Assembly (NCBI GenBank): GCA_977862235.1
Contig: OZ374557.1
Span: 2,728,001-2,792,000 of the forward strand
Source of the DNA: Dudresnaya verticillata
Taxonomy: Eukaryota
DNA: 64,000 nucleotides
Direction of reading: 5' to 3'
The notes beneath the pieces were generated by a model. That model searched no databases, had not been told where the DNA came from, and saw nothing but the letters and a program-made list of their open reading frames with translations. A program made the position numbers and the translations under genes. Shown here in pieces: positions 107 to 48,944 of the stretch; positions within the stretch are counted from its first letter, which is position 1, and the number at the start of each line of letters is the position of its first letter.

Positions 107-1516
107 CTAACGTAGACCGCCACAAGAGCCGCGAGGTCTCTTCCGTGGCAAAATCCTGCTGCAGACAGGCTCTTGCCTTGATGCGTGAGTACTGCCACAA
201 GTGTGCAACACACGTGAAGGAAAGCGTGTTTGCAGTATTTGAAGCCTCTGCATATAAGCCACCGCCGCTGGGATTAGACAGACGTGTTTTCGTGAAAAGC
301 CTTTCACCCACAACCCTTTCCAAGAAGTGACGCGGGAAAGCGCGACGTAAGCTTGCCCAGGTTTCCAAGAACCGGGGGCTGTGAAATCAATTGCCACATG
401 ACGAAGAGTCAAGCCTTGTGACCTATGCACAGTCAGTGCGTACGCAGGGACGAAAGCGAATTGGGAACGCGTTGCTACAATGTTTGCCAAACGGTCTCTG
501 ACATGGAAGTTGTGCGGGGCTACTATGCTTTCGAGACCTGTCTGTGCATGTTTGATTTTGATCCGCTCAATTCGCCCATTGGATTCGCACTCAACGTCGA
601 GGACCGTAGCGCGATCTCCAGGAAGAAAACTCGCTATTTTGCGAGTGAGGAGCACTTGGCAGCCTTTCGCAACTCGCACCAATTTCTCCGCAGTGCCGTC
701 TAGACTGCACTTTCCCTGTGACTCTTGTTCGGGTTTTCATAACTGTCTCTCGCAATATTCTCATAGATAGTAGTTCCCAACTCAGAGAGAGCTTTGTCAT
801 TCTTCTGCTGGACCTGTCGACGATATCGAAAGAGAACAGTGTGTGTCGCCGGTGGATGGATGCAGTCTACTGAAGTTTTGTTTAGTTCACAAATGTCATT
901 ACCTGTCATTGTGTTCTTTCGGACGCGTTGCAGTAGGTTGAACAACTTCTCGTCACCTTTCTGACGGTGGTTGTGCGAAAGACATGCAACTGCGCCAGTT
1001 CCAAGACCACCGAACGTCATAATCCACGTCCAAAGCACGAAAAATCGTTCCGTTTTCTTCCAAAGTGGCATCCTTATGTCCAATGGGTTCCAACTGAAAT
1101 GGATCCCCCGCCACTATCACCTGTCTCCTTCCAAACGGAAAACAACTCCACCTATCGTCATCTGTAAGTCTTCTCAGCACATAGTCCATCGCCTCGAAAA
1201 TTGCAGCGGTGATCTGAGTTATTTCATCCAATACAAGTACTTTCATGCGACGAAGTTCCATTTCTCGTTCCCCGTGCTGCAAGACGAAAGTAAGAAGCTG
1301 TGGGCCATTGAACGGCCAATTTGATGGAGCGCAGAAGAGCCTGCATATTGTCATTCCCTCCATTACGGAAGCTGCAGCATTTGTCTGTGCACAAGCGCAG
1401 ACAACAGGGTACTGTCCAGTTGTAACGCTTGCCTCTCGCAACATGCAGTGAAGCAGAAACGTCTTTCCACAACCCCCGCCCCCGAGGAGGGCTACAGAGA
1501 GTCCTTTATTGAACAC
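107..1516 (-). pseudogene. Pif1-family SF1B DNA helicase, split by two frameshifts (ORFs 953-1516, 700-1083, 107-682)
   Basis: Motifs in order: Walker A GGGGCGKT, CAQTNAAA, Walker B VLDEIT, AGDPFQLEP, NHRQKGD, AYALTVHRSQGLTL, GQAYVALSRV. Short upstream ORFs (1506-2054) may be further N-terminal pieces. Confidence 0.9.
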
Positions 1517-2585
1517 TGAAAAGCAACAAAGTTGAACGGGTCCAAGTTCTCCTTCCCGACATTCGCATTTGCGAGATCATTGTCGTTTCTGTTCCCCGAA
1601 GCTTGGGATGGCATGAAAAGAGCGCAATTACCAGTACTGGAGTATGAAAAAGCCGCTGCGGGAGTCGGGGGGTAAGAGGATGAGATAAAGGGGAGGACAA
1701 AGGGGAAAAGGATGTTTACAAGGCCAGCGTCTCGCTACAGATGGGGAATAGAGGATCGGATCGATACGAAAGAGCCTACCCCTAAACTTGGGGCCTTTAC
1801 CCCGCGATAAAATCTTCGGAATCCTAAGCCATCGCAACATACCGTTTCGGTTCGGAATGTTTTGGCGGGAGACGGGTATAACCCTGGTGTTCTCGCTCCA
1901 TACCAAGTACCACCCAGCTCAGCAAGAGGGATGGAAAAGAGACCTGTGCATCGTCGACCCTCATCCTCATTGGTACTTTATTGTTCCCTTCCGTTGTGTA
2001 GTCGTGTAGCGAGCCAATAATGGATTGGATTGGATTGCAATCCAATAATGACATAATGAGAATATAGGTTCAAAGCGGTGATGTCGCATATGTGTGTTAT
2101 ATCTGACACAGCGGTTCAATCCATTTGATAATTTATTTTTAGCTGCATCTGGATGCATGCATCCACCTTGAGATAATTAAATCCATTTTCTTGCAAGGAA
2201 AAATTATACAACAGCAAAACATCGGGCCACGCGCGTCTCTTGGCTCTTGTCTGCTACCCTGCGACACCGTCTGGCAATGAAGAAAACAATCCGTTACACA
2301 TCAATGGGACACGGTGCAGGCCTGATGTCCCCGGTGCGGTGTACCTTCATCTCTGTCTGTCGTTGGTGCATCCACGTTGCAACGTCTCAACGACTGTTTC
2401 TGGTATTGATCTCCAAAAGATCTGGAGTAGGAGGTTGTGGCATACCTAGACACTTACTTATACTTATACACACACAGACGTTGTAGTAGTGAGAGATCCA
2501 CAGAGATAAGCCTACCCCTTAGTAGAAACAACTGTCAATACCATAGCTCGAGTAAAGCCCCCCCCGGTGTGACGATAAGGAAGAT

Positions 2586-5500
2586 GTGTGGACGACAGAC
2601 GAGGCGATGGGTCTGCTCGACTTCATGTCGTCATCGCATGTATCGGGGGACGGAATGGGACATGCGAGGCCTGCTCGAGCAACGAGACGAGCAACAAGAT
2701 GTTATCTCAAATCTTGGGCCTTGGACATGAAAGAAGTTTGTGCTATAGCAGAAGGCTGGTTAGGGCACGTCATCGCAGACGATGAATTCGTTCCTCCATC
2801 CTTGCGGGCAGGTGATTCCCCTTTCGAGAATATAACATTCCAACCAATGTATCAGGGGAGGCCGGGTACAAAGCATGGGAACGGGGGACGTCCACCGGAA
2901 GGTGATCCTCGAGAACGTCGAGAGACTTTAAGAAATAATCTGAGACAACTGTTTGGGCGCGAAATTATCAAGACATGCGGAGGAACTATTAACGATGTGC
3001 TGTTGAGACTTCAAGAAACTCAGCTCTTGTTTCGTGAGTGTTGGGAGGAAGAAGTTCGTTCCTTCCTAACCGACCTTGACAAGGAGAAGCATAAGGTTTC
3101 TATGATTGAGGTGGTAAATGCACCACTATTCGTGGTTTGCATAAGAATTGTATATTCCCAAGTAGGCGTACTTGAGGCAAAAGTGATGGACCGCCATGCC
3201 ATTTGCATTTGGCTCGACACAGACGGGATTCTATTCTGCACTTGTGTTGGAGAGACTGCTCAGCGCATCCGTGATTGCGTAGGACGAACAGAAGAAACCT
3301 AATGCATTCATGTTGAAGCTATTGCAAGTGTCCTGACGTCTTTACAGAACGCACTGGGTTGTAATTACGCGGATTGTTCAAGGCTTTTCGCAAGCTTGTT
3401 TGGTAACGGTCTTGAGAAACATTATCGGGAACAGTGCCCGAAGTACTACGATATGCACGACGGGAAGATTGTCGTCATCTCGTCTACACGCCAATCGAAC
3501 ACGATGGAATTCGCACCTATTAGGGTCATTGAAAAGGGGAGTTTCTATAAGTGCGCCTTTTATGATGCGCGCCGCGGTGGATGCCATCATACAGAAACGG
3601 CTACTCGGCTAAGGAAACAAACGCTCGTGAATGAGGAAGAAGAAATTGCGGAGATATCTATAGAAGAAGTCGAATCGCACCAAAAAGAGTTCGTTCCTGT
3701 GGCGGGCGGAGTTATTAGCTCCAGTGCCCCTTTTCGAGGAGAATCTATCGGGATGCATGCATCCAGTTCTGCAGGAGAGACAGGAGTTTCTGCGGGGATG
3801 CATGCATCCATATCTGGCGGAGACACAGCGGAACGGAGACAGAAGACGGGAAACGTCACGAAGTCACGACCTCCTATATCATATCTTCCTGTGTCACCAG
3901 TTAATTGCACAAGAGCGTTGTTGGTAGACCGGTTCGTTGAGAACTGTTGTCTGCAGAAAGGAGCTTTTTTGATTCGTGCCCCTCCGCACTGCGGATACTG
4001 CAACACCCAGACAGCATCTGGAAAAAAGAAAGTTCACAACAAGGGGGTCATACATTGCACATACGGCCCGTATAGAATGCATGTCGAAGAAGTCACTTGC
4101 CCGAAATGTGACAGAAGTGTATTCGCAGAAGGTAGAGACTGTTGTGTGGTGCTAACATCCCTCTGCACAGCTGCAACACATGCCTGGTTACGAGCCGAAA
4201 TAACTGGCGTGGCACAGGGGAACGGTACATTTTCAGGAAGACTAAGACAGTACCATTCCCAGGCTATTTCTAAGATACTGGCAGACATTCTGCCAAGTCA
4301 TACACCGCCGAGGTCTGTAGAAGGGTTATATCTTCTCTGCCGCTGCATGCTTCGACTAATGACTTTGGAACCCATCCCGGAATTGTTTCACTGCCATACT
4401 TGTGAAGGAAGTGAAACCATCCCAGCTCTTTGTATTGATGGCATTCAACAGGGTTTCATCAAATCAAAACAAGTCAAGTTGCAGAACATTTCGGAAAGGT
4501 GTGATCCCCTTCCATCTGCAGACACAGCTTCCTCTCAGTCTAGTAGACCACTCACGGGTCTTCTTAGAAGAGAGGGAACCGCCTCAATTTTGCTCACAGC
4601 AGTCAAGGGAAATACTATCTTTTGCAAAACTCCAGAAGATGCAAAGAACATATCCATGTGCGTGCGACTAATCTCTGGAGATGTGTTACCTCCAACGTTT
4701 TGCACATCCTCCATATGTGGCAAAACACATAACGATTACAACCGGGATATTGGAGATAACAACTTCGTAATGGCCTTTAGAGAGTTGCATGTCGCAATAC
4801 TACACAAAGACACATTTCTCTTCAGACTATTACAACCTCTCCATACGTATATATCCGAAGAAACCGTGAAAGGAAATACTGAGCTTTTGAATCGGTTGCG
4901 TGCAAGCGGACGACAGTCAAAACGGAGTCGAACCGGAAGAATTCGTCTGAGAGGGCAGCCGGCTTTCCTAGACAAAATCGCACCAGTACTTCAGCGTTTA
5001 CTAGGACCGACATACTCTTCTCTAATTTTACAGGGCTCTTGTATGCGGAAAGAGTTGACTAATGCTTGAAAACTGGACCGTTTGAAGGACATCACCACAT
5101 TATATTACATGCTTGCACAAGGACCACTGGTACAGTTCGTCAGAGTGACAGATATTGCATCTCTGCGTCACCTTGCACGCATATGTTTATCTTCTCATTA
5201 TGCTCCATTGCTGGAGGTTATTCGGTCGCCGCTAAAACTATGCAACTCTGCTGGCAACACTAACGTACTTAGGGGCAACAAAGCTTTGAGAGCTGCTTTA
5301 CTCACGACCTACGAAATTGAATCCCGCAGTGAGTTTGAAAATATCGGTTTCTCTTTGCGACAGGGTCTCGGACATATGTTCATGGCAGCAGCCAGCTGCG
5401 TATTCGACTTCTACTCGTTTTACTCCAACTGCACGCCTCGGCCACACTCTGCAGCAAAATATGCAGCTGCATGGGCTTCTACCGATACCCGCACATTGAT

Positions 5501-6143
5501 TGCAGGAATGAAGTCTTACCCGAAGCCGCCTTCCGCTATTCTTGAATATGCTTTGAAGAGTGGAAACTACTTCCCGGGGAGGGATCAAGTACGTCCGCTC
5601 CCGTTCAACCCAGAACAGGAAAGTGCAGAAAGAGATTCTCCACTTGGGCCTTGTTCCAAAAACTTCTACAAGACGCAGGATTACTACACCCCTGGCGCTA
5701 TGACTATCACATGCTCTTGTCCCCATCCAATAACGTTCGGCACAAAGGTGCTCTACCGGCACGAAGGCGCAAAGGTCGTATTGGATATGGTGCTGTCAAG
5801 GTTCGCAAAGATGCCGCGGTTCATTGTTTACGATTTTTCCTGTGGGCTATTCCGCAGTGCCGCGCATACGCTGTGGTGGGCACTGAAGGATACTACAATT
5901 GTGTCGGATAGATTCCACGACAGTAACCACAAGCATTACTCTCCATCGTTTTCACCTTACGTCTACAAAGACTTGGACTGCACCAATACCGTGTCGCATG
6001 AACAGAGAAACAGCGGAATCAGGCTCTTATCTCGGTCCCTCCGCAATTGTAGTCATGAAGTTTATGTCACACTGCTCGCCTTTCAAAGCATTGTGAACAA
6101 CATTCGAGCGAAGGCGAAGAGTTCACTTCCGTATGCTGTATGA
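2586..6143 (+). pseudogene. KDZ/Zisupton-type (HMGXB3-like) transposase with SWIM and CxC zinc clusters; one frame with two in-frame stops
   Basis: ORFs 2586-3302, 3396-5069 and 5082-6143 share one frame (stops TAA 3300, TGA 5067). SWIM-like CTC...CIH spans the first stop. Other motifs: CGYC...CPKC, FHCHTC...CIDG, SGNYFPGR, CSKNF...TPGAMTITCSCPH, IVYDFSC, SDRFHDSNH, HEQRNS. Confidence 0.8.
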
Positions 6144-7300
6144 GAAAAAAATTACAAAGACTTCGACTTGGAGCGGTCTTACTTCAACTGTTTAAACTAC
6201 AAATGTTGTTGTTGTATGCCTGATGGTTCTCCAGTGATGCAATAATACATACAACTATAGGTAATAAAGTAATCCTTCTCAGAGCTCTGACGACAGATGT
6301 GTCATAGGATGCATGCATCCATCCCATCACCTTGTGCAAGAAAGCAATCGTTTTTGAAGATTCGCCAAAAATCCTGCAGTAAGTCATATATGGAATGATT
6401 CTCAACCTACACTACTGTTTCGTGTTTCCTAAAGTGAGTTACCTTTACATTCCTACTGGATGCATGCATCCACCATATGGTGTGGTGGATGCATCCAACA
6501 CACGCCACCATCTACGCCGCCTGTTCGGTTCCATGCCGTGTAGCACGGTAAAGGGGATTGCAATGAATGCATGGGAACTATACACACCAAATAAATAAGT
6601 TCAGATGGAGCTGATGCACTCTGCAACTGCACGATACTGCCTTGACTGAACATTTATTTGTACGGTTTTGTAAAGCCGGCATTTATGGCGAGTTCTGGAA
6701 ACAACCGAAACGACAAGGACCTGGAAACAACCACCGATAAAGCAATATTCTTTCTCATGTTGACAAGTTTTTTACTTTGTTGGCATGTTCACTTCATTCT
6801 ATTTATGTGAGCAGCTTCGGGCATAGGAAAATTGCGGCCCAAACCGATTACGATTAATCGCAATGGGTGGGGCCGCAATTTCAGTTCCAGTAAAGACATG
6901 ATTGGGTAATTGGTCCCTGCGCGATATATCGATATACGATTGCTGGGAGTGTTGGGCCGACCGGCCACGCATCTTCCAATGATCATCACGTGCACGTGAA
7001 TAAAGTAACGCACACTTTTGGTGGCAGACAGCGCCTTCATCGAGATTGATCAATCTGTCGGCCAGCCTTCCGCATCAATACAGAATTCCGCTGGCCGCTC
7101 GAAGGCTTCAAAAACCACACATCTCCCTTCCCCGCCCACCCCGCCCTCCCCGCCCACCTGCCCCCCCAGCCCGCTCAACGACGGCCAACGACGCCCACCT
7201 TCGGCACAATCACCCACCACCGCCTACAGACTGACCTGCGGCACCACCACCCATTCGCACCTACCTACCGCCGCTCACGGACGCCTACGAAGCCCGCGCT

Positions 7301-8847
7301 ATGGTGAACCCGAGGAGCCGCGCTGCGACGCGTCCGTCGAAGCCTGACCTATACGAGCGTCAGCGTCTGCAGGAGGACTGGGATCTGTACATCCCTCCGG
7401 AGGAGGCCGACTGTCATTCACCGCTCATGACCCCTCAGCCATCGGAGGGGCGGTAATAATTGTGGAAAGCGATGAAGAAGGACCCATCGATGGGAATCGA
7501 GCCGAAGAAAATGAAGAGGTCACCGCTGACCAGGTTGACGAGGTTAGGGCTGACCGCATCTCTACGTGTGGTCGCATGGAGGCTCCCGATACTGGGAGTA
7601 GCACGGCGGGGCCCTCTGCCCCACAGTCCTCAACCACCAACACTGCCTGTGTCGACAAAGGAATCGCTGGTAAGCGGAGATCTCACCAACGTCCCGCTAC
7701 TAGTCCAGAGCACGGGAGTAAGCGACCGGCGCGAAGGCACGGCGCAACCCCAAATGCTGCCTTGGTTAAGGTGAAGAAGGAGATTTCTTTAAACAGAGCA
7801 CCCGTCGCGGCACACCCAACTTCCCGGCCGGCTGGCGGTGTCAACGTACAGAAGAAGGAACTCGCCGTCGTGAAGAAGGAAGGTGGGAATCATCGCAACC
7901 CAGACACAGATATGATGACGAAGACGCTCACCAAAGCCGAAATCCGCTTTCTACGTGACAACGTCTCGGATTTTAGAGTTCTGGGCGTTGATGTTTCGGA
8001 GGAGGACATAGATGGTCTTCGCCAGATGGAGGGGTGGTGTTCAGACGTTATAATAGACGCGTTCTCCATGCGCCTGAACTCCCGAAATGTGGCAAGGGTG
8101 TCCAAGGATGCTTCCTCGCAGAAGGTCTTCTGCTTCTCAGTCTTCTTCTTCGACCTCCTTCTCCGACGCTCCAACATTTCCGACCGCATGGAAAGAGAGA
8201 GAATTGCGACGGCACCCGAGAATTCGGACGCTGCGGCTGCAGCGGATGTGCCGGGCAATGACAGCGATTCTGCGCATGATGTGGACGCGGAGGAGCTGAT
8301 TCGGCGACAAACTTCACACCCAAGGATGCCATCAACGTGGGGTGGAGATGATGACCCGTATGACTACTTCTGGGTAAAGAAGGTGATGCAGCGTTCTGCC
8401 ACGAGTTTGGGAACGGTGGATATTCTAATGTGGCCAGTCATCATCTCCAGGATGCATTGGGTGCTGATATTCGGCGACTTGCGCGATGGCACATTCTACA
8501 TTTACGACTCCCTCAAGCTGGAAACTGCTGAGAAGCTGAATCTGGTTGCCGCGGCACAGCGATACGTCAACGACGAGGCTCGTTCCAGAGGTGTTCCGGA
8601 GTTCACGTTCAGCTCAAAGGTCATTATGACTGATCCGGCTTACCCAGACCAGACGGATTCTGGGTCCTGTGCCGTCTTCGTCATGTGGGTTATGGAATCT
8701 CTCGAGCGCAAATGTAAACCGTCTTTCAAGCAAGAAGATATTGCTGTTCTACGCGCACGCACAGAGCTGTTCCTGAGAACTAGTCGCATATGGCTTATGG
8801 GTAAGAGGAAGAGACCTAGGATACGGACTGAGGCGAAGGCGAAGTAG
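7301..8847 (+). CDS. Ulp1/SENP-type SUMO protease (peptidase C48) with a long disordered N-terminus
   Basis: ORF 7462-8847 has WCSDVIIDAF, HWVL (His), YIYDSL (Asp) and QTDSGSCAVFV (Gln, Cys). The probable start is ATG 7301, joined by a -1 frameshift at GGGG 7447-7450. Confidence 0.85.
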
Positions 8848-9065
8848 TGTATACATTGTGTTTGCACACAAGGGATCTTCTTGCTGTGATTTATGTCTTG
8901 TATTGTAGCGCTTCTCCAACGCTAACTCTTCTCGACTCCTTCCTGTTGCTGAAATGCAACAATAATTAAAGCTTTGAGCATAACTCGTGTAACAACCAAT
9001 TGCGCGTCATACCGAGCATGCGTACGATTCGCGGCTATCGTTCAAAACATGGCTGCAGTTCAATT

Positions 9066-9520
9066 TGCACCCATGGATGCACTGCATCCACCCCTCATTT
9101 CTGGGCTGATAATCCATGCCGCATAATGTGCAGCATGGATGCAGTGCATCCACCCCTCATTTCCGGGTTTCGATTTTGCAAAATGCATGGAGGCAGTGCA
9201 TCCACCCATTATTTATGCAGAAATGAGGGGTGACCCGTTCTGCCCATGAGTTATGCAGCATGGATGCAATACATCCACCCATCATTTCTGGGATTCGGTA
9301 CTGCAGCAGGGGTGGATGCATTGCATCCACCCCTCATTTCTGGGTTTCAGTTTTGCAGCAGGGGTGGATGCAATGCATCCACCCCTCATTTCTCGGTTAT
9401 GCAGCATGGATGCCCTGCATCCACCCCTCTTTTCCGGGTTTCGGTTTTGCAGAATGCATGGATGCAGTGCATCCACCCTTCATGTCTGAGATATGCAGCA
9501 TGGATGCAGTTCATTCACGC
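9066..9520. repeat. Tandem array of ~9 imperfect units (about 42-73 bp) built on the palindrome TGGATGCAnTGCATCCA followed by CCCCTCATTTC
   Basis: Units read directly, starting near 9072, 9134, 9186, 9259, 9310, 9361, 9405, 9457 and 9499. The array lies between the convergent 3' ends of the Ulp1 gene and ORF 9674-11377. Confidence 0.9.
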
Positions 9521-9673
9521 GTCATTCATACCTGCAGGCAGGAGACCTTTCATAACTATTGCGATTCAGTCGGGTTGCAGTCGACTGCACGGATCGGGTT
9601 GCAGCCTCGGTGGTTGCGACCGCTGCTAGGATGAACCGCATCTCGTCAGATTTTATTGGAACCCTAGAGGTGT

Positions 9674-11377
9674 TCAAGAATTGTCGATCAGGTCTTTGTG
9701 CCAGAAAAATGCAACGGCGTTGGATAGATCAGACACCTTCTTCGGAAAGAATGCGTCGCTGTAGAAATGCTGCTCCCTGTACTTTCCAAGTTGGTTTGTA
9801 TGGTACCATTCAGGGAACATATACGGAATGTTCCCGGTTGCAGCGCCTCCTATTGGCTCAAAGTTGAATAAAAGCACGGCATTGCTAATGTCGTGGTCCA
9901 GACCATCCCCACTGCATGCTCTTGGAGGCTTTTCTTCTGCAGGAGCAACGAGGTTTCCTCGAACAAAAATGGCAGAGCCAATTCTCTCAAACTCCGCTCG
10001 CAGAAATACCCTCCCAATACGGCCCTTGGCAACGAAATAGGGCGTTGATAAGATATTGGTAGGAGAAAGGTCTTGGGAGAATGGGTCGTCTACTGACTCA
10101 TTCCCTTCTTTCTCCTTCAAGCGGACGATGACGCATTCTCCAGGGACAGCTCGGCCAAGTAAGAAAGAACTGAATGGATCCACGCTGCCACATCCCAATA
10201 AACAATTTCTTTCGTCGTCATTGTAGACATTCACAGTAGCCTGTGGATCAAACACACAGGTGCCACTGGCAGGGCGATTGCATGTCATCCATTGCTGGCA
10301 ACCATAAGGTTCGAATCCTTTCAGGGCATACTCTCGGAGAAGCTCCCGAACTTGCAGGTAAGGAGGTCCAGTTAATAAGAGAACAGCGATGATAGCCAGG
10401 TTTTTGGCCTTTGAGTTCCGAGACGCTTTCTCTATCTCCATATGTATCCCTCTGGCAGGACCATCAATATATATTGGTGGCCCGCCAACTACCTTTCTAG
10501 ACAAAACCATGGACGGCAACCATACCTTCTTCATTCTGAGCTGAACTGGAAGTAGAGATGCATACCGAATACCAAAGGTTTTTCTGCCATTCGACTTCAA
10601 GTGATCCAAATTGTTATCAAGTAACCTCTTCACAACACTAGCACAGTACACAGTAGTTGCCCTGTCCATGTTACTTCTCTTTGAACCCATGTGCGCGGTG
10701 CATCCTACAGCGTCCAACATTAATGACAAGCATTCCGCCATTACACCAATTGGAACAGTGTACTCGACAGGTTGAATAGAAGTTCTAGGTGACGGAGCAA
10801 TACCAGACGGTGTTTCTGCAGGTGTAGATGATGAACCACGTAACAGCGTGCCAACGTCAAGTGCTTGACCGGTTGCATGTGCAGGTGGTACTATCGTCCG
10901 AGGCCGGGCTGGTGGCCCCCTTCCAGCGTCCTCTGCGGGGGGGCTGGATGCATGCATCCCTTCAGGGCCTTGATTTCGTGAAGCCCCTACTGGCTCGGCA
11001 GCCCGCCCGCCAGTCTGTCCAGATGCCCTTGGAATTGATTGAGAGGGACCGTCAGCTGGATTCGCATCCGTGGTCTGACCTGCAGGAGCACCCTCTTCGC
11101 GAACACTCCCGGGATACGGCGGACCCCACAGAGTGAAGGTAACGCCTTTTGTATTTGGTTGCCCAGGGTTCACGACCTTGCAGTAAACGCCGATAGAAAG
11201 ATTACCAAGCAATGAATCATTGCAAACTATTTGCTGCGCAGTATATGCGGCTTGAATGACCATGCTTAGCGCAGCTGCTGCCGAATCCCGCGAACTTGAT
11301 CTCACTGCTCCAAGCGCATCTCCTTCTGATCCATCAATCAAGGCATTAGCACAGGTCTGTGCTATGCTGTAGTCCAT
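9674..11377 (-). CDS. Hypothetical protein (~567 aa), probably transposon cargo
   Basis: Uninterrupted ORF (track 9674-11425; first ATG 11377). It has an N-terminal segment, a Pro/Ala/Gly-rich linker and a globular-looking C-terminal region. No family motif recognised. Confidence 0.65.
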   Translation of the reverse strand: MDYSIAQTCANALIDGSEGDALGAVRSSSRDSAAAALSMVIQAAYTAQQIVCNDSLLGNLSIGVYCKVVNPGQPNTKGVTFTLWGPPYPGSVREEGAPAGQTTDANPADGPSQSIPRASGQTGGRAAEPVGASRNQGPEGMHASSPPAEDAGRGPPARPRTIVPPAHATGQALDVGTLLRGSSSTPAETPSGIAPSPRTSIQPVEYTVPIGVMAECLSLMLDAVGCTAHMGSKRSNMDRATTVYCASVVKRLLDNNLDHLKSNGRKTFGIRYASLLPVQLRMKKVWLPSMVLSRKVVGGPPIYIDGPARGIHMEIEKASRNSKAKNLAIIAVLLLTGPPYLQVRELLREYALKGFEPYGCQQWMTCNRPASGTCVFDPQATVNVYNDDERNCLLGCGSVDPFSSFLLGRAVPGECVIVRLKEKEGNESVDDPFSQDLSPTNILSTPYFVAKGRIGRVFLRAEFERIGSAIFVRGNLVAPAEEKPPRACSGDGLDHDISNAVLLFNFEPIGGAATGNIPYMFPEWYHTNQLGKYREQHFYSDAFFPKKVSDLSNAVAFFWHKDLIDNS

Positions 11378-12620
11378 CTTCAGCAGTTTTTTCTTAGTGA
11401 ACCGAAGAGAAAAGTGAAGGAACAAAGTTCTTCTGCTCCTTGTTGTCCAGCTACAAAAGGGAGGCTAGCAGGACAGGTTCATGTATCCCGTTGCAATGAC
11501 GCGTGCAATACATTAAACTGCATGCATGCCTCGCGTAGGATGCAAGCATCCACCGTGAAGCTCCTGCATATTTTCGCATATTTCCGACTCGCTTCTCATT
11601 GGTTCAAGGGGCCGGGGCTTGCCCCGTGGGGCAGGCCCCGACCTCAGAGCGCGGGGCCCGATCCTAAGGGGCAGAAATATGTCCCTCTGGCCATTCAGAG
11701 GCCGGAACGAAATTTTGACAAGTGTTACCACATGCACATTTATTATGATTTCAATTGGACTATCGTATATTCCGTACAGTTCATTGGTGGGGACTATACA
11801 AGTGGAGCAATCTTCCTACCGTTGCAGAGCGCTTTCAAATTCATAAACATACTCAATGCCGATAGTAACAACCCCTGCATAAATCCACTGCTGTTGGAAC
11901 CACTCCTAGGTGGTGCCGACAATAACGCACAACAGCCCGCATCCTGCATAACCAGCACAGATTAGTAGGGAGTACGTAGGTTAAGATGAGAATAGTTTAA
12001 TATCAAATATGCATACGACTACCAGGGTACTACGATGCTACTGATAACTGAATAGCGGGTAAACGACTCCTTTTGTGGCGCAGTTGGTACCGTTGATGCA
12101 TCGTTGCACGCATCCAAGCAAAGCATCCGGTCAACAGAACAGAACGGGGTCGAACAACAGACACTCTCACACACTAACCAACATTAAACACACGGACTCC
12201 GTCGGCAACAGTAGCATTCAGCACACGACTCGGCCGGCCAATTGGCGTCCAGCCTCCGCGACACTGTCAGCCTCTGTCACGGGTCGTGACCATCCGTAAC
12301 ATATCTTCCATCTCCTGTTCAAAAATAGCCGTTCCATTTCTTATCGCTGTACACGTCGCATACTAGGCCACCTACCATCTCCAATCCCCATCTCATCTTG
12401 TGTTCCCTGTTGATCGTTGATTGAGTGTCTTGCTTTTTGCCGCTTTCGATACTCTCACAATGCCTCTCATAACTCAACAACCGTGGCCCGACAAAACCCC
12501 TTTCTCTTCCCTTTCTCCACTCCCTCCGCCACCCTCTCCCTGTACCCCTATTCCGCTTCACTTTCAATCCTTTTTGCCCCTGCTGTTTCAGACTATCGAT
12601 TTCCTCTATTGCCACCCGCG

Positions 12621-15170
12621 ATGAACGCCGCCGCCGCCGCAGCTCCCGCTGCTGCTGGCGCTGCGCGTGGCCACGGGCCTGCACCTCGTCCTCGCCGCTG
12701 TCTCCCCGCGCGGCTCGGCGCTGAGCGCTTCCGCCGCGGCGCTCCTCGTGCTGCTGCTGCAGTCGGGCTTTGCGCACGCGCACGCGCACTCGCGCGCGCA
12801 CGCCGCCCGCGCCTTCTCCGCCGCGCGTATGGCCTGCCTGTACCTGGCCTACCTGCTGTCGCTGCTGCTGCACGTGCCGCTCTCGGCATCGCCGCGCGCG
12901 CGCGCGCTACCGCGCGTGCTCGCCGCGTCCGCGGGTCTGTCGCCGTACGTCGCCGTGCTGCCGCCGCTGCTGGACGTCGTGCCGGCCGCGGACACGCCGC
13001 GCGCGCTGCATCTCCCCGCCGCGCTGCTGTGCCTCTGCACGCCGGTGCAAGCCGCGTGGCTGTCGCACCCGCCGGCCGCGCGTGACGTCGCGCGCGCAGT
13101 CATGCTGCTCGACTTTGCCGCCTTTGTCCCGTGCCTCGTCTGCGTCCCGGCCTTTGCGCTGGGCGTCGTGCTGGCGCAAGCCTTCTTGCGCGCGGCGGAC
13201 AAGCCACCGCCGCCGTTCGCCGCGCGCTGCAGTGACGCGGTTCTGGACGCGTTGGCGCTGTTGGTCGCCATGCGAATGGTGCTGCCGCTGCTTGTCGCGC
13301 TGCAGGCCTCCTAGGGGGAGGAACAGCAGCAGCAGCCGCCGCCGCCGCCGCCGTTCCTCGCCAGCTGAGCCGTGTGTGGCCTGCTGCTCCCGCCCATGTG
13401 CACGGTCGAGTGGACCCTAGCGGCGCTCTCGCGGGGCGGTGGCGACGTGCATCCCGCCGAGGACGCAAGGCAGCCGTTGCGCAGCTTGTCCGCCTTCTCG
13501 TTCACCGTGTACATGATGGCCGGCCACGTGTGGCGCATGCTGGGCGCTTCGTGCCAATCACACCGACACATCAAGTGGTACTGCCTTCCTCGCCCCGTTT
13601 CGCCGCCGCACGTCACAGTGGCGGCACCCGGAGCCGGAAGAGATGCTCACCAGCACGGCTGCCGAGGTGGGGAGGAGGCTGCTCAGCGTCTCCACTTTTG
13701 GAGGGCTGGCAGTGCAACTGCTCGTGTATTTGCCAGCATTGCTTGTCGTGTCCGTGGCGGTGTATCTCGGCGTGCAGGCACCGCTAGAGGCTTTTATTGT
13801 GTCTGCGCTTGAGCGCTTGATGCAGCTTGCGGAGGATGGCTTGTTGTCGCAATCTTCTTTTTGGTCGCGCGTGGTGGTATTGCTCTGTGTGGGGCCTGAG
13901 AGAGGGATCAAGCCGAAGAGGAGCGGTTCTTTTGCAGAGCGCGTCATTCGTGTGCTGCTATACTACCTGGGAGGCGCGTTCTGCTTGTGGTTTGTATTCC
14001 GGTACAGCCTGCCAATAACGATTCACGTGTTGCACACAAGGCCAGGTTCGGTATTTTGCCTTCTGCCAGGATGGATCTTGCCTCACAGATCCAGGAGCCT
14101 TCAATTGGCGAAATAGTGGTTCCACAAGAGTATACGCCCCCCAATGGGGCAATGTACAAAGCAAGGGCTCTCAACTACGCAATAGAAACATCTCCAGCAA
14201 GATCAATGGCTTGGATTGTACATTTAGAAGAAACACGCTTTGATTCGGATACAATACGGGCGATTTTGCAGCACTGTGGCAGAGAAACATACTTGACGAG
14301 GGTGACAAAATCACAGCAATGGCCACGAATAGGGCAAGGGCCGATTCTTAATGGACGTGCCCTAACATATAGATATGTTACTGGAGGCGACTTAGGAACT
14401 GGAAACTGGTTGACCACGCTCGCGGATTCGGGCCGAGTCTCCGATGACTGCGGGCGTTATCGGATACAGTATGAGTGTGGCGAGGTATGGGTTGGCATGC
14501 ACGGATCGTTCGTGATTGTCGCGAATTGCGTGTAGCAGGAGGTGACGTTTGACCATGCAGTAGACGGAAGAATAGCGGAGGACGCATTTTTCGCACTATT
14601 GGCTCGCGCGAAAAACGTGCGGTTTGCTTGGATTGATGCATTAATGGTCGAGCAAAGCCCGTTCACGGTACAGGACTTTGTGGAGCAACGAGCACGATGG
14701 CTTGTTGGTGGGTTGCGAGTGGTCTCTAGCAAACAAATCCCATTGCGCCTGCGGTTTCTCATGAAGATGCTGACAGGGTTGTGGGCTCTGATGACGCTGA
14801 CATACACGGCACTGATCGTATCGATGCTCTTCGGAAGTGGGGAGGGGCAACGCTCCGCCGGAAACTACTACTACTTTCACGTACTACTGCCACTCCTGGC
14901 CGCGGTATCGCTCTGGAACTACATATTTGGATTCCTTGTGACCTTTTCGATCCGCAGTCTCGGACCGATCCGGTTCATAACATTGCTCTACCTGCAGCTG
15001 GTGCTGTCGCCAGTTTTCGGTGTGATGGAGGTGGCAGCGGTATCGTGAACTTTCGCAAAATATCTGGCACGTTCCACGTGGTGGAGAAGGACGGTCCACC
15101 GAGTGGGACGTCTCCCTCGCGAAGAGACAGCACGGGAATTGCAGGAGAGAATACGCGACTGCTGCCATGA
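12621..15170 (+). pseudogene. Egghead/BRE-3-like GT2 beta-1,4-mannosyltransferase with a multi-TM N-terminal extension; disrupted
   Basis: Motifs: IVVPQEY..PNGAMYKARALNY, WIVHLEET (egghead HLDEET lacking D), IGQGPI, NWLTTLADSGRVSDDCGR, GMHGSFV, TFDH..DGRIAEDAFFA, EQSPFTVQDFVEQRARW, FHVVEK. In-frame stops at 13312, 13366 and 14533, plus several frameshifts. Confidence 0.8.
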
Positions 15171-16817
15171 CGCGCACGCGGATGTATTGTATCGTAGCGA
15201 GAGCTGGGTCGCGCATTACCGGGACCATCCCGAACTATGCGGGCTTTCTATCGTCGCGCTTGTAAACACAATAAAATCATCCGAGACGTTGGGGATATGC
15301 AACCATCTCGAGGAGAAGAACCATTTCCCCGCCTGCTTCAAGGCTTGTACATAACAAACTCCTGCGCACGTGAAAGTGTCAACTCGTCACTGTCGCAGCC
15401 ACGCCCGCCGTATCGCCAGACAAGCTCGAACGTACGGCAGCAAACGCATCGCCGAGACCCGCGCAGTTTCAGCATCGCCATCGCAACGACGGCCCTCCAA
15501 GGCACGCTAGCTCACGAGGCCCCTACACTCTGCCACTCGAGCATGCGCGCACAACACACATGTTGTAGCCGCATCACCTCCAAGCAGTCCGCCTGCTTCC
15601 GCAACGCGCGCCGGTAGTTTCGTCGTGCGCGTCGCTACCGCCACGACAGCCGAGGCTGACGCCACGCGCACGCAGCTCCACACGGGTCGCGCGGGACGTT
15701 CGTCATGTCATGTTACTGAACGTAGGCGGAATGAGTACTGGTTACCACAACGACTATGAAACTCTGAATATCGAACATTGGTGACAATGAAATTATGAAG
15801 CATTGAGGTGAATTTACTGTATAGCGAGATGTCGCTGTACACCGGGAGATACAAACTGGTTTAAGTTGATTTAGCATTTGCCCCTTTCGAGACATCGGTT
15901 GAAACCTCGCGCGCACGGGTAACCGGTTACGATCCTGGAAGCCGTTTTGCAGTTGTTGGACTTTTGCTTCTCGTTACAGCACTTAAGCCGTCGTGTGTGA
16001 CTGCGTTGAGATGTTCCTACTCTCACCGCTGCGTTTTCCCAGTCCTTGTCCCACAGGTCCGGTCCAGAGCTGCTCCGATTGGACCATTGGATTGGGCTGG
16101 TTGGGACGGCAGGGTGCGGGGCTCCATGGGCTATCTGCTGGACTCCGCTGGATTGGTAGGTGGGGCGCTCCTAACATGAAATAAAACGACGGATATCGGC
16201 CTCATTCTTCCACAATATGTGCAAGGATACAATCGTGCCCGGGGGGGCGTGGTCGACATTGCTGTGATGGTCAGAGCGCCTGAGTTACATCGTGGAAGCT
16301 TCTCAGTCGACTTCGGGAGTCGCTACCACCTCGTGGCATCCCCTGAGAAACGAAAGTTTGCGGTGTTTGGGAGGCTAACTTGGTGAGACCGGGATCCAAA
16401 TCACCTGTGTTAACAGATGAAACAAACACCTTTTTTACTCAATGGATCAATCCCCTCCATCGCCGGCGTGAAGGCCGAGCGACGACTGATGAAGTCCTCA
16501 CTGTCTGAGCGACCCGAGGCAGGGTCGCTCAGAGACCCCAAACAAAGGGGTGAAGTCCACCTTACATGGCTGACATCCTAAAATACAATTAAAACTGGAC
16601 GGTGCGACCGCAGGAGGCGCCTGGCCGGAAATCCCAAATGTCGCCAGAAATAAAAACAAAACAGATAAGCGGCGGCGCGCAGCGCCGCTCCCGGTGAGCT
16701 CGAACCCTACCCTCGAGCGCCACCGGAAGCAAATCGGTGCTGGCGACCCCGCCAGGGCCACTTACGTCAGCCCGGCCGCGCCGGCCGGAGTACGAGTACG
16801 TATGATAAAAGAAACAC

Positions 16818-17039
16818 GTGGGCTCACGTGGCATGACCGTTTCAACAGAGGAGAAGAACGCAAATATTCTCGTTGAACTAACTACCTTCTGTCCGGATCA
16901 AGGGTCCGTATTGGATGTCTACGCTGGGACAATGACTACGGCTTTAGCTCGTCTGATATTATCCCGCCGCTGTACAGTCGTAGAGAAGAACCCGGTAACC
17001 TTCAGGCTCGCACGCAACCGTCTGTATCGTGTACTGTAG
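16818..17039 (+). pseudogene. C-terminal remnant of a beta-class N6-adenine/N4-cytosine DNA methyltransferase
   Basis: EEKNANILVELTTFCPDQGSVLDVYAGTMTTALA...RRCTVVEKNPVTFRLARNRL follows the N6_N4_Mtase C-terminal pattern (K-P..L..LI, G..VLDPF.G.GTT..A, R..I..E, A..RL). No catalytic DPPY motif seen. Confidence 0.6.
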
Positions 17040-18304
17040 CATCGGATATGGGTGTGGACAGGGACCCCCATCCTGAAGTGCAGTAAGAGCAGCGGACAGC
17101 GGCGACTCGCGCCCCGCAAAGAAGCTACTGTAATCCTGTACTGTAACACTTTCCTGAAAAGGCAGTGATATTGTGCTACTTACGGCTCCACTACTGCACA
17201 GCAATGCGCACAACAACACCGACACGAGGACAGAACCCACAGCGCTGTAGACCACACTCTATACGCTTCCCACTGTGACCGTCGGCTAATCTCACATATA
17301 CTGTACGACTCCCAATTATCACGACTCCCGGGCGCGAGGCCAGTCCCTACGGAGGGGGTAGGGCACGATCGTGACGATTCCTTTTGTCCAGTTTCTCTAC
17401 CAAAACGCAGCAAACAAAGGTGTATCATAATGCGTGACATGCGTTTTCCAGCTCTGCGTCGGGCCAACCTTTTGTCCAATTTTACTTGTCGCTCTGGTAT
17501 TCGCCGCCGCGCTGCAAGCCCGCTCCTGGGATTGGACGCCCTGGGTGGCACGCTTCCTTGCAGCGGCCTATGCAGCGGGAATCGCCGCAGCGCTGGGGGC
17601 GCCCCTGCCCTCCGGGGACCGGTCCGCTCCCATCGAGACCCGGGGCCAGGAACCGGACCGTGGCCCTCGGTCCGGGCCGGTGTTGACGCGGGGTGCCACG
17701 CGCCGGGCTCTTACCACCAGGTGCACAGCATGTACACGTCGCCACGCCACGCTCTCCAGCAATGCATTGGTGCGCTCTACTGGGGATACCCACGGACAAC
17801 AGGGGGACATCTTCATCTGCATTCCTATTCGCCTATCCGGGACATACACCCCCCTTCCCTCCCGCGGGCCACCCAGCCATGCCCGCTACCACTGTAACGA
17901 CAAACACCGCCATCCAGCGCTATCGCCCCGTCATCCTGCTCAGTGCACACCTCGCTCTAACTATTGTGGCTTCTTCCAGACACTGTCACCGCTATGCTAT
18001 TCCTCTCCTTCGCAGTAAGAACACCCGCTGTGCCCCACCGCAAGGTGTAGACTTCACCATGATGCTGAAAATACTAAGTCTTTTCATTTACAATGAGTAC
18101 ATACTGCGACATTCCCAAACCCCGATGAACTTCAAGACACACACGAATAGCATTTAACAACATGGCAGTAATGCCAAAGATTCTCATACTAGCAAGCTTT
18201 TCCTAACAATCGCCTACACTTCACTTCATGAATAGTAAAAAGTGTATTGAGCGGTAACGGAGATAACGACTTATCTTACGAAACAATGCTGAGTCCAAAA
18301 CTGT

Positions 18305-21300
18305 TCAAAGGTCGAAACTGACCTTCTTGTTCTCAATTGCCAAGCGCAAAAGACAGCGGCGGACAAAGTCAATCTGTCCTTCTCTCGGTTCCCAGATTTC
18401 AACGGCGGATCCATGATGCTGCTCAATGCACCTCTCCCAGTACCATCTCCACGCCTTCTCATCTTCCACAAGGGTTGAACTATCTCCGACGATAACAAGC
18501 AGCTTTCTAGCTCTACTGCAGGCCACATTCGTACGCCTAGTGTCCTTCAGGAACCCAATGGATCTATTCACGTTACTGCGCGTCGATGATATTATAACCA
18601 CGTCGCTGTCCGACCCTTGCATAGCATCAACTGTTCCAACTGTCACATTGAAGTTCTTAAACTGCTTCATGAAATCCCTCGACAGATTATTGTGGAGAAG
18701 CATCACCTGCGAACGGTATGGAGCCAGAACAGCAACTTCCACAACCTCTTCCATTTCCCCATTTCGCGCTTGCACGCTCGCGATCCTTCGAAGCAGTGAT
18801 TCCACAATCCAGCTCTCAAGGTCATTGACAAAACTTCCTTTTCCGCGCTGCAGACGCTCGAATCGGTCTCTACAAGCAGAAGTATCGACAGTTGTGAATG
18901 GAGAGAAGGCGTCTGTGTCCTTTCCTTGTCATTATAGTAAGCCAAGTGATGAGGAAGAACATCCGGGTGCTGCACAAGCTCGCCATAGAATGGCACCCTG
19001 TGTAGTTTTCCTATTCCGGGATGTGAGCGGTACTGTTTGCGAAGCATCGTTCCGCTGCAGCGCCGCTTTTCGACCAACCTTTCAAAAAAAGACCGTATCT
19101 GATTCTTGTAATGGGCTTGGTGATTGCCATTAGATTGCAGGACGCTCATCGCATGCTTCGACTTGAGAACCGGGGGCAGCCGCTGGTGGTCACCTGCAAA
19201 GCAGAAATGGTTCACGTCGGAACGATTGTCAACGGAACTCAATGGTATCAGACTCTCCGGCTCAAATACACCCCCCGCCTCATCACAAATTACCATATCA
19301 AACTTGGCTTGCATCGCCCGGAACGTCCCACTCCCAACCAAACTATTCGTCTCTAGGTACACGAGAGAATTCTGAATAGCTTCCTTACGCGCTCGAGAAG
19401 AAGGCTTTTCCGGTTTTGGAACTGTGGAGTCCAGCTGCTGAACTTCCTGCCAACCTTCCTGCTCGTACTTCATTGCACGTTCCCGAAGAGACTGCGACCA
19501 TAAGTCCTTGAAGTCGTATTTGTGTCTGGCTATTCGTACCAATTCTGGAACTAGATTGTCTTCCCCGATACCTTTCAACAACCGGCGCGCAACATTGTCG
19601 ACTGCCTGATTGCTGGAGGCCGTGACCAAGATACGCATTCCTCCTCTTTTCTGCGACCCAGGACAATTGACTTTAACCACGTTTCTTCCATTTTCCTCTT
19701 CAATCTTCTTTGACTCCTCACTAAGGTGTCCTTTCACGGAGTGATGCAACAGCGCCATGATTAAGACACACAAGCTAGTCGTTTTTCCGGTTCTTGGAGG
19801 CCCATGAATATAACTCGCGGAATTGGAGCCCTTCTCACAGCCCCCAATGCGTCGCAAACACCTCAGAACAGCCTTCCTCTGCGAAACATTGCACTCCGAC
19901 TCGGATAATGTGTCGAGGAATGCAAGGCATCCTTCATCAACACCGTTCCTGAGGGCTTCCATAGGAGTCTCAAGGTCTGTGGGTATCGCGTTTGAAGAGT
20001 CAACATCACCAAACAGAATATTCTGAAGTCCCAGCGGGAGATTTGCGACGTAGTGAATACCGCGCAGCATTCTCTGAGGCAATACTATGGTGGAGAACGG
20101 TCGCAGGTAAAGGTGGTCATCCTCCTTCGGATCCCAACCGGTGAGGAGCATTCTACTCCCACACACTCTGACCATGACCTCATCGATCTTGCGTCCTAAT
20201 CCAACTTCATCCAAATCCTCGCGTTCAAAGTGCACACTGCGGATCAAGAATATTGCTGCCGGCGAGTCTGGTCTCTTCGGTAGCTGCAAATCGCGATACG
20301 AATAGTCCTTGAAGAAACCGACGCAAGCTGTCATTCCGGTGAGCGACCGCACAATCTGCTCGTTGAGCTTCGGATCGTGGCTCTCGCAATTTAAGTTCAT
20401 CAGCAGAGCGGATGGCGTGACTTTTCCAACCCTCATCATAATCAAATTCGGGTAGCGAAGATCTGTCGCTTTGCGTACGAGAAAATCCGCTCGTTGCACC
20501 AGTGTCAACCTAGGACGCCTAGCTCCGGCCTTCGGAATGCTGAACTCCTTGATAAGGTCAGCCTGCAAGCAATACTTCGCCTCCAAATTCACCACAGCCG
20601 TCCAGTGATTGGAATAGTTCCTCGCATCCCTGAGTTTGGAACAGTCTGGCTCTACATGTTGGTGGTTCCACTGCGTGAATACCTCTAGCCACTCCAAATG
20701 CTCTTCATCCAGAAGGCTACCTGCCGTTTTCGAACGCTCTTCAGACTTGTGATTACTCCACAACCCTTGTATGAGACTGGGATCAATCTCGTGGCTTGTG
20801 ACGGTGGCATAGAAAATCTCATTCTCCACATCTAAAGACTTTCCTGCCTCCAAACGTTGCTGGGCAGTCACGGTGCGCATCTCCTGTTCTAGTTTCTTCT
20901 GTTCCGGGGACGTCTGAATAGCATCCTCATTGTCGGAGTCAGGATAATCCAAATAGTAGCGCTCCTCGTGAGGACGGAACGTGGTGCATCGTCTGAGTGT
21001 CTAGACCGTGCTTGAACTGCATCTGGTAGGGCTTCAAATCAGTACGCCTCTTCTGACGAGCCGGACCCTGTCGAAATGCAGTCCTGCCGGATGCCGCCGG
21101 AGCGCCAACAGCATCAGGAAGATCAGGCGATGGAGAAACCGCAGGAGACGCACGAGAAGCAGTCACACGAGGCGTCGGAGTTTGGGATGGCGTCGGGATC
21201 CCTGAAGATATCGGTGGCGGGGGGCTATCGACGGCAGGACTCGACAATGCGCCGTGAGGTTTCCGTCCTTGGTTGACAACATTGCTATTCCTTGGTGCCC

Positions 21301-22418
21301 ATCCCAGCCTGTCCAGAGCCCCGGGACTGTCCGTAGTTGGAGCAGCGACAGCGGCAGACGCAGGCGATGCACCATTGGCCGCGGCAGCGACAGGAATAAT
21401 TTTCTTGAATCTCATCCTCGTCATCCCGCGATCGCTTGCGGATATCCGCGGTAACATCAACGACTTCGGTCGTCTCCCTAACCTGCCTAGGCTCGTTGAG
21501 GTCAATAATCGGAATATCGATGGAGGAAGAGCCCCTCGGAGCAGGCTGCCCTTTCTGCATATTCTCCCGTGAGTTCCTGGAACTGCTCAAGCGTGCCCGA
21601 GAACGAAGAAAAGAGAGGCTATTCCCAGGATTATCCACTCCACAATTGAGTCTTGCCCACACCTGTTGTACAGCATAGTTATTGTGCTTCTTCTCTTCAC
21701 GAGACATGAGAAGACGTCCCGGAATCTTCCGGACATCTGCTAGCGTTGCATAATTACGAATAGCATCGTCCAGTATCTTGGGCTTGAAAATTCCCTTGAA
21801 CGCATCGTTTCCAGCTTCTTTTCCATCATCTGGACATCCGTTCACCTCTTCGACCAACTTTCTGAACACACGCGAGAGACTGTTCCTGACTCGAGGCGAC
21901 GCCCCTTCCAAAGACATGAACTGATTCGCGCTATGACCAGAACAAACCAGCATCCAAACCGCAACCTCCTGGATGAGGTGTTTGCACCAGTGCAGAAGGC
22001 ATTTCCTTACATCTTCAGCGGTCACAAGTTCCCCTTCGCTGTTGTGTAGAATCTGAGCAAGAATCTCTGTATGCAATAGCATACACGTCTCGGCTATTCT
22101 CCATCCCTCAACCATCGACTGATACAGAAACGAAGAGGCTTCTTGTGACGACATCATACGGGAGCCCCATGAAGCAGCTAGGTATGTCTCGAACATGCCA
22201 ACCATCGGATCGAAGCCAACTTCGGAACCATTGCTTCCCGAGTGATGCTTTCCGAACCAACCACACAACGTACCCGCCAGCGTCACAAACCTGAGAAATG
22301 TCATGCAGCAGATCTTTCGCGCTTCCTCCGAATACCTCGAAGCGATGTCTGCGACTTTGCGAGTCTCTCCCCAATAGTTGACTAGTCCTGGGCGATCAAA
22401 CTGGTCGATGAACTCCAT
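18305..22418 (-). pseudogene. Sen1/Upf1-like (DNA2/NAM7) SF1 helicase with a long N-terminal region; frameshifted
   Basis: ORF 18703-20952 has IHGPPRTGKTT, ILVTASSNQAVDN, VICDEAG, AGDHQRLPP, SFFERL and MLRKQYRSHP. ORF 18305-18805 has VLAPYRSQV, GTVDAMQGSDSD and RRTNVACSRAR. Overlapping ORFs 20939-21505 and 21285-22418 probably form the N-terminus (inference). Confidence 0.85.
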
Positions 22419-23132
22419 TGAGAACGCATCTTACGCATCAAACGGGCGAGATGCCGCTTTGGTCCACTCGCTTTCCTTGAGAACTCGGAAAGCTGAGTTG
22501 GCTTGAAGATACCCTTTCACTTTGTTGCTCCAGACTGATGAACCCTGGGAAGACTCTATGCCGAAGATGGTCTCCCCGGGGGCGTTTCCTGAAGTCAGCC
22601 TTCAGTCTTGATGTTGAACTCAGCGCGCTGCGGCGAAGAAAAGTCAGTAATGCTGTTCCGTGCGAGTGTGCGTGGGGAGTGTGCAGGCAGGCGGGCTTTT
22701 TCGCAGGGATTCGCGAAGTTCGTGTGGTTATATGCTATTCGAGCGCTCGGTTCGTCCCGCTTTTTGCGCCCTTTCCAGCTTTCATGCGCGTGTGCCAGTC
22801 TTGAAGCTCGTCGGAGAAGGCCGGTGGGGCGCGTATGCGTAGCCACTTCTGTCGATTTGCACCCATCTGTGTCGCAGAGTTGCACTGTAAGATACCTTAC
22901 AGTGCTCCCGCCGTCGGCGACCAACGCGCCGTCCGCGCGCGACGCGCGCGCCCGACTGCAACTGGCTGGGCTACTTCAAGCCCCGCTGACCACTGCAGAC
23001 CACCCCCGCTCCTCGAGAGCACGATCGAAGTAGAAGAGTAAGCAGCGTTGACGAGAACGTCCGTTGCGTCAGCCGCGGTGGTCTGCCGTAGCCCTCTTCC
23101 CTTGCTTCGATAAACCTCGCCCACCTCTCTGA

Positions 23133-23210
23133 CCCGCTCGCTCCGCTCGCGCCCCGCCTCGCTCCGCTCGCGCCCCGCTCGCGACCCGCTTCGCCCCGCT
23201 CGCGCCCCTT
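23133..23210. repeat. GC-rich minisatellite (CCGCTCGCGCC-like units)
   Basis: About 6 imperfect copies of CCGCTCGC(G/T)CC read directly. Confidence 0.6.
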
Positions 23211-41848: not shown

Positions 41849-41863
41849 GGCCCCCCTCCTTAA

Positions 41864-48796: not shown

Positions 48797-48926
48797 GATA
48801 CCTTAACAGAACACAACGGTTGTTCCTGCTTGTCTATCCAATATTCCGTAACGGGTTGTCGGTACAGCCGAATTCCTACCGTAGCGAATTTCGACGGCTG
48901 TTTTTTCCAACCGTGACGGTGTTGTA

Positions 48927-48939
48927 GGTCGGGAGACCA
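48927..48939 (-). promoter_or_regulatory. Candidate primer-binding site TGGTCTCCCGACC
   Basis: TGG-starting sequence 5 nt inside the 5' LTR. The cognate tRNA was not identified. Confidence 0.45.
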
Positions 48940-48944
48940 AGAAA

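Follow-up and report, generated by a model that had tools for sequence, protein, structure and literature searches.

The DNA analyzed here, hereafter the window, is a stretch of 64,000 nucleotides from Dudresnaya verticillata (assembly GCA_977862235.1, contig OZ374557.1, positions 2,728,001 to 2,792,000 of the forward strand). Its first 11.6 kb contain four genes and a repeated palindrome that likely represent the decayed copy of a giant (>11.6 kb) cut-and-paste transposon of the KDZ/Zisupton type, here termed element A. The genes encode a Pif1-family 5'-3' DNA helicase (107-1576, minus strand; Pfam PF05970, E 7.6e-16), a KDZ/Zisupton-type transposase of ~1229 codons (2556-6245, plus strand), a Ulp1/SENP-type (C48) protease whose true start is uncertain (7348-8847, plus strand; Pfam PF02902, E 1.4e-12) and ORF567, an open frame belonging to an unnamed protein family (9674-11377, minus strand). 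An earlier note on this DNA had placed all four genes at these positions, in agreement with the Pfam matches for Pif1 and Ulp1 and with the frames as read here. It had also described four compact genes, two of which are pseudogenes in the window copy. The transposase occupies a single frame with premature stops at 3300, 5067 and 6141, and Pif1 is spread over three frames by frameshifts near 1080 and near 720; the copy is therefore dead. Position 107, previously given as the element boundary, is the Pif1 stop rather than a demonstrated end, and the left end of element A probably lies off the window, before base 1. A GC hairpin near 11610-11640 was considered as an element end and rejected, as it was no better than those of shuffled sequences (z -0.77), and an Rfam search of positions 1-35 kb returned no match.

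A palindrome repeated across element A

The 14-mer palindrome GGATGCATGCATCC was found in six exact copies and one copy with a single mismatch, all within 2151-11551. The mean number in shuffled sequences was 0.02, and none of 100 shuffles reached seven; when the best palindrome of each shuffle was scored instead, 200 shuffles yielded at most two copies. Within the genes of element A, three copies were observed against a mean of 0.03 following synonymous-codon shuffling (0 of 500 shuffles reached three). The copy at 2151-2164 lies between the divergent starts of Pif1 and the transposase. Two further copies, 45 bp apart (3751-3809), are in frame in a transposase linker, where they precede the conserved SPVNC block by 98 and 143 nt. 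Another two lie +64 and +215 from the transposase stop (6307-6496), accompanied by a contracted form, GGATGCATCC, at 6487. One copy falls inside a variable linker of ORF567 (10946-10959), and the rightmost, which carries the mismatch, is 160 bp upstream of the ORF567 start (11538-11551). The palindrome thus spans the whole four-gene block and ends at its right edge.

A tandem array of nine units of 42-73 bp is located 160-600 bp downstream of the ORF567 stop (9055-9535), and each unit contains the 15-mer GGATGCAnTGCATCC. Nine copies of this 15-mer with up to two mismatches, five of them exact, were found at 9075-9516, exclusively in the array, together with a stray two-mismatch match at 19918; shuffled sequences gave a mean of 0.26, and none of 100 reached ten. 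Both forms of the motif are far above chance. The earlier note had quoted a single palindromic motif, but its 15-mer fits the array only, the dispersed 14-mer sites being without the spacer base. Its description of the palindrome as private also applies in part: the motif is private to element A within the window, but two other families there have palindromes of their own. A family-specific motif concentrated in the element and partly in tandem, as in VANDAL transposons, is nevertheless present within the 64-kb window.

A relative with a different palindrome

A metagenome scan yielded 176 candidate stretches, two of which (L001 and L002) were confirmed as relatives of element A. These overlap by 277 nt at 99.6% identity and then diverge, which fits either two copies or an assembly break. 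They encode a frameshifted homolog of ORF567 (30-32% identity, L001), a transposase (36% over 1070 amino acids, L001), an intact Pif1 of 507 amino acids (36-47%, L002) and a frameshifted Ulp1 (27-32%, L002). The gene order of the relative is ORF567, transposase, small open reading frame, Pif1 and Ulp1, and its GC content is 43% as compared with ~50% here. A different order, with different genes broken in each genome, is expected of mobile cargo. Given that homologs of all four genes co-occur in L001/L002, reordered and differently broken, the four genes very probably constitute one multi-gene mobile unit. The earlier note had named, as a refutation of its single element, that the four genes are never found together elsewhere; this co-occurrence supports the single element instead. 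The relative also has, beside Pif1, a fifth open reading frame of 170 amino acids (L002:1759-2268) to which nothing in the window is homologous. An array of 72-74 bp repeats at L002:6444-9184 is split by a 2-kb stretch.

The relative is without GGATGCATGCATCC but has four copies of another palindrome, GGGCATATATGCCC, within two mismatches, a number reached in none of 200 shuffles. One of these copies occupies the same transposase linker (L001:3977), 77 nt before SPVNC. Another, with two mismatches (L002:837), lies ~210 bp after the transposase stop, as compared with the window copy at 215. In addition, three repeats resembling GGACGCAATTGCGTC are found 300-390 bp downstream of the relative's ORF567 homolog, at the place of the window array and with a similar half-site. 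The motif therefore turns over between relatives yet keeps its position, and the element-specific motif of the earlier note is extended by a different palindrome at matching positions.

Affinities of the encoded proteins

The transposase displays a SWIM-like CxC..CxH motif, cysteine clusters and the residues D628, D1093 and E1149, which we take to be the catalytic D, D and E; these are conserved in 8/8, 7/8 and 8/8 rows, respectively, of the A1 alignment, in keeping with the acidic triad that accompanies CxK, CxC and H motifs in KDZ/Zisupton transposases. The CxC...CxH motif at residues 228-252 is common to its homologs and has no Pfam SWIM match. Three homologs, P0007-P0009, are 46-52% identical to the window protein in the core. 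The transposase of a second KDZ-type element in the window, element B, is 31% identical in the core, and alignment of the A and B profiles reached 99.4%. The Pfam KDZ family (PF18758) was matched by three of six B-type homologs (E 1.8e-5, 4.7e-5 and 0.054), all under the 26.6-bit cut-off, and CxC4/CxC5 were matched weakly by four B-type homologs (E 1e-4 to 0.15), the corresponding window region reaching E 3.6 only. In a giant-virus-type homolog (L005), the CxC4 match exceeds the cut-off (E 3.4e-8), and alignment of the core of this protein with the A profile reached 97.6%. A SWIM-like motif combined with a CxC4-like motif fits the Zisupton layout described in PMC11343200. The window transposase works in the manner of a KDZ transposase, and its formal membership, as proposed in the earlier note, is likely by way of this chain of homologs. 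The A and B transposases form two well-supported clades in a tree built without named Zisupton, Kyakuja and Dileera rows, such that the tree does not fix the subgroup.

Viral contigs contained no A-type transposase and no relative of ORF567, and genome G001 contained only one algal-type transposase piece and no ORF567. The match to L004 was too weak (E 3e-4) to be considered further. The giant-virus-type contigs L005 (7637-10474) and L006 carry an intact KDZ-like transposase of 946 amino acids, with neither accessory genes nor a palindrome family.

A Pif1 helicase is usually taken as a marker of Helitrons. Here, the best solved relatives of the intact helicase from L002 are Pif1 helicases (E 2e-34), as compared with E 6e-14 for Helraiser, and this protein has no Helitron_like_N match. 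Upstream of the window Pif1, there is no open reading frame of at least 100 amino acids on the same strand. A Helitron origin for this gene was therefore rejected, the protein being closer to cellular Pif1 and without a Rep (HUH) domain. The Ulp1 protein has a long low-complexity N terminus and intact H, D, Q and C motifs, to which we assign the catalytic roles, and its best solved relatives are SENP5, SENP1 and Ulp1. Zisupton elements reportedly encode a SUMO protease domain.

A word-index search and two Atlas searches with ORF567 gave no usable match. By contrast with these, a HMMER profile search of 1.84 billion representatives retrieved 68 proteins or clusters at E ≤0.001, two of which are apparently the L001 pieces themselves. 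Organisms were named for four of the 20 looked up, and all are red algae (three entries from Gracilaria domingensis and one Eucheuma denticulatum transcript), which points to a red seaweed as the probable host. Alignment of 59 of the 68, nine short ones being left out, revealed conservation of C216 (40/41), D222, H229 (40/41), Y272, K317/R320/K323, C360 (39/41), C366 (44/44), C374 (43/44) and a C-terminal set of W-Y, H-F and W. Residues 231-270 are basic (net charge +3.3) and have a mean identity of 15%, between blocks at 41% and 33%. These features suggest that ORF567 may bind zinc and read DNA, making it a candidate reader of the motif. Readings by eye of ORF567 as BAH-like or as a 2-oxoglutarate (2OG) oxygenase were not borne out by the family alignment, in which there is no conserved HxD, the 2OG-oxygenase motif.

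Other palindrome-bearing families and possible readers

Element B extends over ~18-33.7 kb and is deeply divergent from element A, its transposase falling in the separate clade. Besides an intact transposase of 1081 amino acids (27110-30355) and ORF657 (31098-33071), it probably includes ORF381 and a Upf1-like helicase with a frameshift (18305-21000). Its palindrome, GAATAGCTATTC, occurs in five copies, and 25 of the 31 half-sites in the window lie inside element B, coding DNA included. Ten half-sites fall within 17.9-23 kb as compared with six in the 48 kb outside element B (p 3e-7), and it is by this half-site that the extent of the element, including the Upf1-like helicase, is marked out. 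No trustworthy pair of ends was found among 630 and 897 candidates. A 7-bp duplication with an 8-bp inverted repeat (15857-33075) was rejected because it interrupts the reading frame extending beyond the ORF657 stop and excludes a half-site at 33715. This frame runs for 104 codons beyond the stop (33072-33383); its end resembles a ubiquitin/SUMO-like fold by eye and has no Pfam match. In a B-type relative (L003), an open reading frame of 933 amino acids (1636-4434) follows the transposase in the same orientation and is weakly similar to ORF657 (22% identity over 99 amino acids, E 1e-4). The pairing of a transposase with an ORF657-like gene thus looks conserved too, on the basis of this alignment. 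The L003 contig is filed in a bacterial metagenome-assembled genome and looks like eukaryotic contamination.

The third family consists of Gypsy long terminal repeat (LTR) elements at 41000-49600 and 57600-64000, a region that also contains an extra open reading frame of unknown kind (41864-44375). The motif CCGTnACGG has 29 exact copies in 42-64 kb and none before 42 kb; within Gypsy coding DNA, 12 copies were observed as compared with 0.71 expected after codon shuffling (0 of 500 shuffles). This coating is possibly a more striking case of the same phenomenon. In the coding DNA of element A, element B and the Gypsy elements, the motif of each family is more frequent than after synonymous-codon shuffling. 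The half-sites of A and B are not enriched in four host genes, and the loose Gypsy pattern is mildly enriched there (6 as compared with 2.15; 7 of 300 shuffles). A private palindrome therefore looks like a strategy common to several transposon families in the window.

The palindrome is probably read by some protein that the element itself encodes. Since it is perfect, the reader would be expected to be homodimeric, and ORF567 is favored for this role in element A because the array adjoins it and because no other cargo gene lacks a role of its own. That ORF567 is the reader of element A is put forward tentatively, its chances being a little short of even. The corresponding mechanism is held with the same reserve: the palindrome would be bound by a dimeric protein encoded in the element, most likely ORF567, which would allow the element to recognize its own copies and keep them active. 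A DDE-type transposase would cut and paste the unit, and Pif1 might unwind its ends or aid gap repair. Ulp1 could strip SUMO from silencing or transposition proteins and so reverse SUMO-dependent repression. The reader would bind at promoters, gene linkers and the array to counter host silencing, and reader and motif would change together between families. A much broader proposal, which taken as a whole is unlikely, is that red-seaweed transposons of several classes, LTR elements included, barcode their full length, including the coding DNA, with a private palindrome and encode their own reader. ORF567 would then represent a new family of zinc-binding, reprogrammable readers with a basic variable helix that co-evolves with the motif, within a self-licensing anti-silencing module that has captured Pif1 and a SUMO protease.

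The main rival explanation is that the transposase itself reads the palindrome through its SWIM/CxC N terminus, for self-activation or transpososome assembly, and that ORF567 does something else. A palindrome is present in each of the two KDZ-type elements of the window, which share only the transposase, the matching sites cluster within and just after the transposase gene, and a 2026 preprint reports a Mutator transposase that activates cognate copies sequence-specifically. However, the sites are internal and dispersed, the array adjoins ORF567 and not a demonstrated end, and the Gypsy elements show the same phenomenon without such a transposase, so that this explanation is considered doubtful. 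The presence of palindromes in three unrelated families, one of them an LTR retrotransposon, would also be consistent with sites for host transcription or chromatin factors acquired independently by each family. This is improbable given that the four motifs differ from one another and turn over between relatives at kept positions, and that the half-sites of A and B are not enriched in the four host genes.

A reader would be dispensed with altogether if slippage, duplication or gene conversion had spread a hairpin-prone word within each element. The two linker copies do resemble a 45-bp duplication, the linker sites of the transposase and ORF567 share flanks (80% over 30 nt), and the array can be explained as a plain tandem expansion. 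Most dispersed copies, however, have only the 14 bp in common, the two species have independent motifs at equivalent positions, and the motifs exceed codon-shuffle expectation in the coding DNA of three families; spread without a reader is thus judged very improbable. Least credible is the view that the block is no single transposon but a cluster of host genes or an accumulation of separate insertions. It would accommodate the lack of visible ends or a target duplication, the different gene order of the relative and the many members of the ORF567 family. Against it, homologs of all four genes, 27-47% identical, lie together in a second genome, with disabled genes in both genomes, and a single motif runs through the block as far as its right edge.

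Several observations weigh against a KDZ-type unit whose palindrome is read by ORF567. The ends, target duplication and copy number of element A are undemonstrated, and the window transposase has no direct match to PF18758, nor have its homologs P0007-P0009. The comparison of motifs involves one relative only, pieced together from two contigs that are possibly different copies, and the site at L002:8059 lies in the 2-kb stretch that interrupts the repeat array and is maybe a separate insertion. Enrichment of GGGCATATATGCCC in coding sequence is not significant (30 and 37 of 500 shuffles), and since insertions into coding sequence are tolerated in linkers only, matching linker sites are less surprising than they appear. 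Among 60 members of the ORF567 family, there are no credible Pfam matches; ORF567 itself has no match in the PDB, and NCBIfam and PHROGs returned nothing. Two AlphaFold models, which predate the deep alignment, are unusable, with predicted local distance difference test (pLDDT) values of 31 and 29. No homolog of ORF567 was found in a search for one in element B and the Gypsy elements; as these have palindromes without this gene, ORF567 is not a general reader and could be at most that of element A. Finally, the 4.8 kb of the B-type relative L003 contain no repeated palindrome.

To our knowledge, sequence-specific self-recognition by transposons has been demonstrated only in flowering plants (VANC and TnpA) and proposed for red-algal Plavaka elements. 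In VANDAL and KAONASHI, family-specific short motifs form tandem repeats in a three-gene element, and some members have a Ulp1 domain (PMC5735166, PMC13317346). These elements differ from element A in their MuDR transposase, in the VANC21 motif YAGTATTAY, which is arrayed in one orientation and mainly in non-coding DNA (PMC5735166), and in that the Ulp1 of KAONASHI is a domain within some VANC genes (PMC13317346). Binding and hypomethylation have been demonstrated for VANC (PMC5735166), whereas self-recognition by element A is plausible but unproven. No Pfam match to MuDR or VANC domains (DUF1985, DUF287) was found in the transposase or in 60 members of the ORF567 family. In the Spm TnpA systems, too, an element-encoded factor recognizes family-specific motifs, which diversify along with the transposon lineages, but its sites are terminal and TnpA is a helix-turn-helix protein derived from a transposase (bioRxiv 10.64898/2026.08.24.746577), whereas the sites of element A are internal palindromes.

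The closest red-algal parallel is the giant Plavaka DNA transposon of Bostrychia, which has three accessory genes (PAG1-3) and an inverted-repeat tandem array beside one of them, PAG3. The authors of that work compare it with VANDAL and describe PAG2/PAG3 alongside Zisupton elements in Bangiophyceae (bioRxiv 10.1101/2025.02.11.637652). Plavaka differs in its EnSpm-type transposase and in its accessory genes, which are an adenine methylase-SET (PAG2), a ParB-like/2OG-oxygenase (PAG3) and one unknown; Pif1 and Ulp1 are absent from the main text (bioRxiv 10.1101/2025.02.11.637652). No PAG2 or PAG3 domain was found by Pfam in the four genes of element A. Among KDZ DNA transposons, Cryptococcus KDZ1 (10.9 kb) and KDZx1 (PMC11343200) and the giant elements of Ectocarpus (PMC12477816) resemble element A in exceeding 10 kb, in a transposase of ~1200 amino acids with SWIM-like and CxC clusters that is often pseudogenized, and in extra unknown ORFs. 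The passages considered from these two papers do not mention stand-alone Pif1 or Ulp1, an ORF567-family gene or an internal family palindrome. Target duplications are 8 bp for Zisupton and 7 bp for Kyakuja (PMC12730594). Helitrons also carry a Pif1-family helicase, fused to a Rep domain (PMC8788227), whereas that of element A is free, nearer to cellular Pif1 and beside a DDE-type transposase.

The earlier note knew of no account of its combination of features, but it overstated the novelty, in that VANDAL-like logic has already been proposed for red-algal Plavaka. A literature search, with Repbase and subscription journals outside its scope, recovered no account of a cassette of Pif1, Ulp1 and ORF567 whose motif turns over while keeping its positions. 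Element A and its orthologous relative carry different 14-bp palindromes at equivalent places, which makes a reciprocal protein-motif swap feasible in another superfamily. Element A also presents a cut-and-paste element with a free Pif1 helicase and, in ORF567, a family of 68 clusters without a known fold, and the nearby Gypsy elements suggest that the barcode idea extends to retrotransposons.

To the right of element A, a gene for a family 2 glycosyltransferase (12620-15050; PF13632, E 2.6e-12), which is frameshifted and very rich in GC in its 5' part, probably marks host DNA. It is followed by a fragment of an N6/N4 DNA methylase (16809-17036; PF01555, E 0.0024), a domain type reported in red-algal PAG2. 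A Helitron N-terminal-domain fragment at 56517-57125 (PF14214, E 4e-13) is unrelated to the Pif1 of element A. Several unrelated perfect palindromes of 12-20 bp are clustered within 400 bp at 24500-24910.

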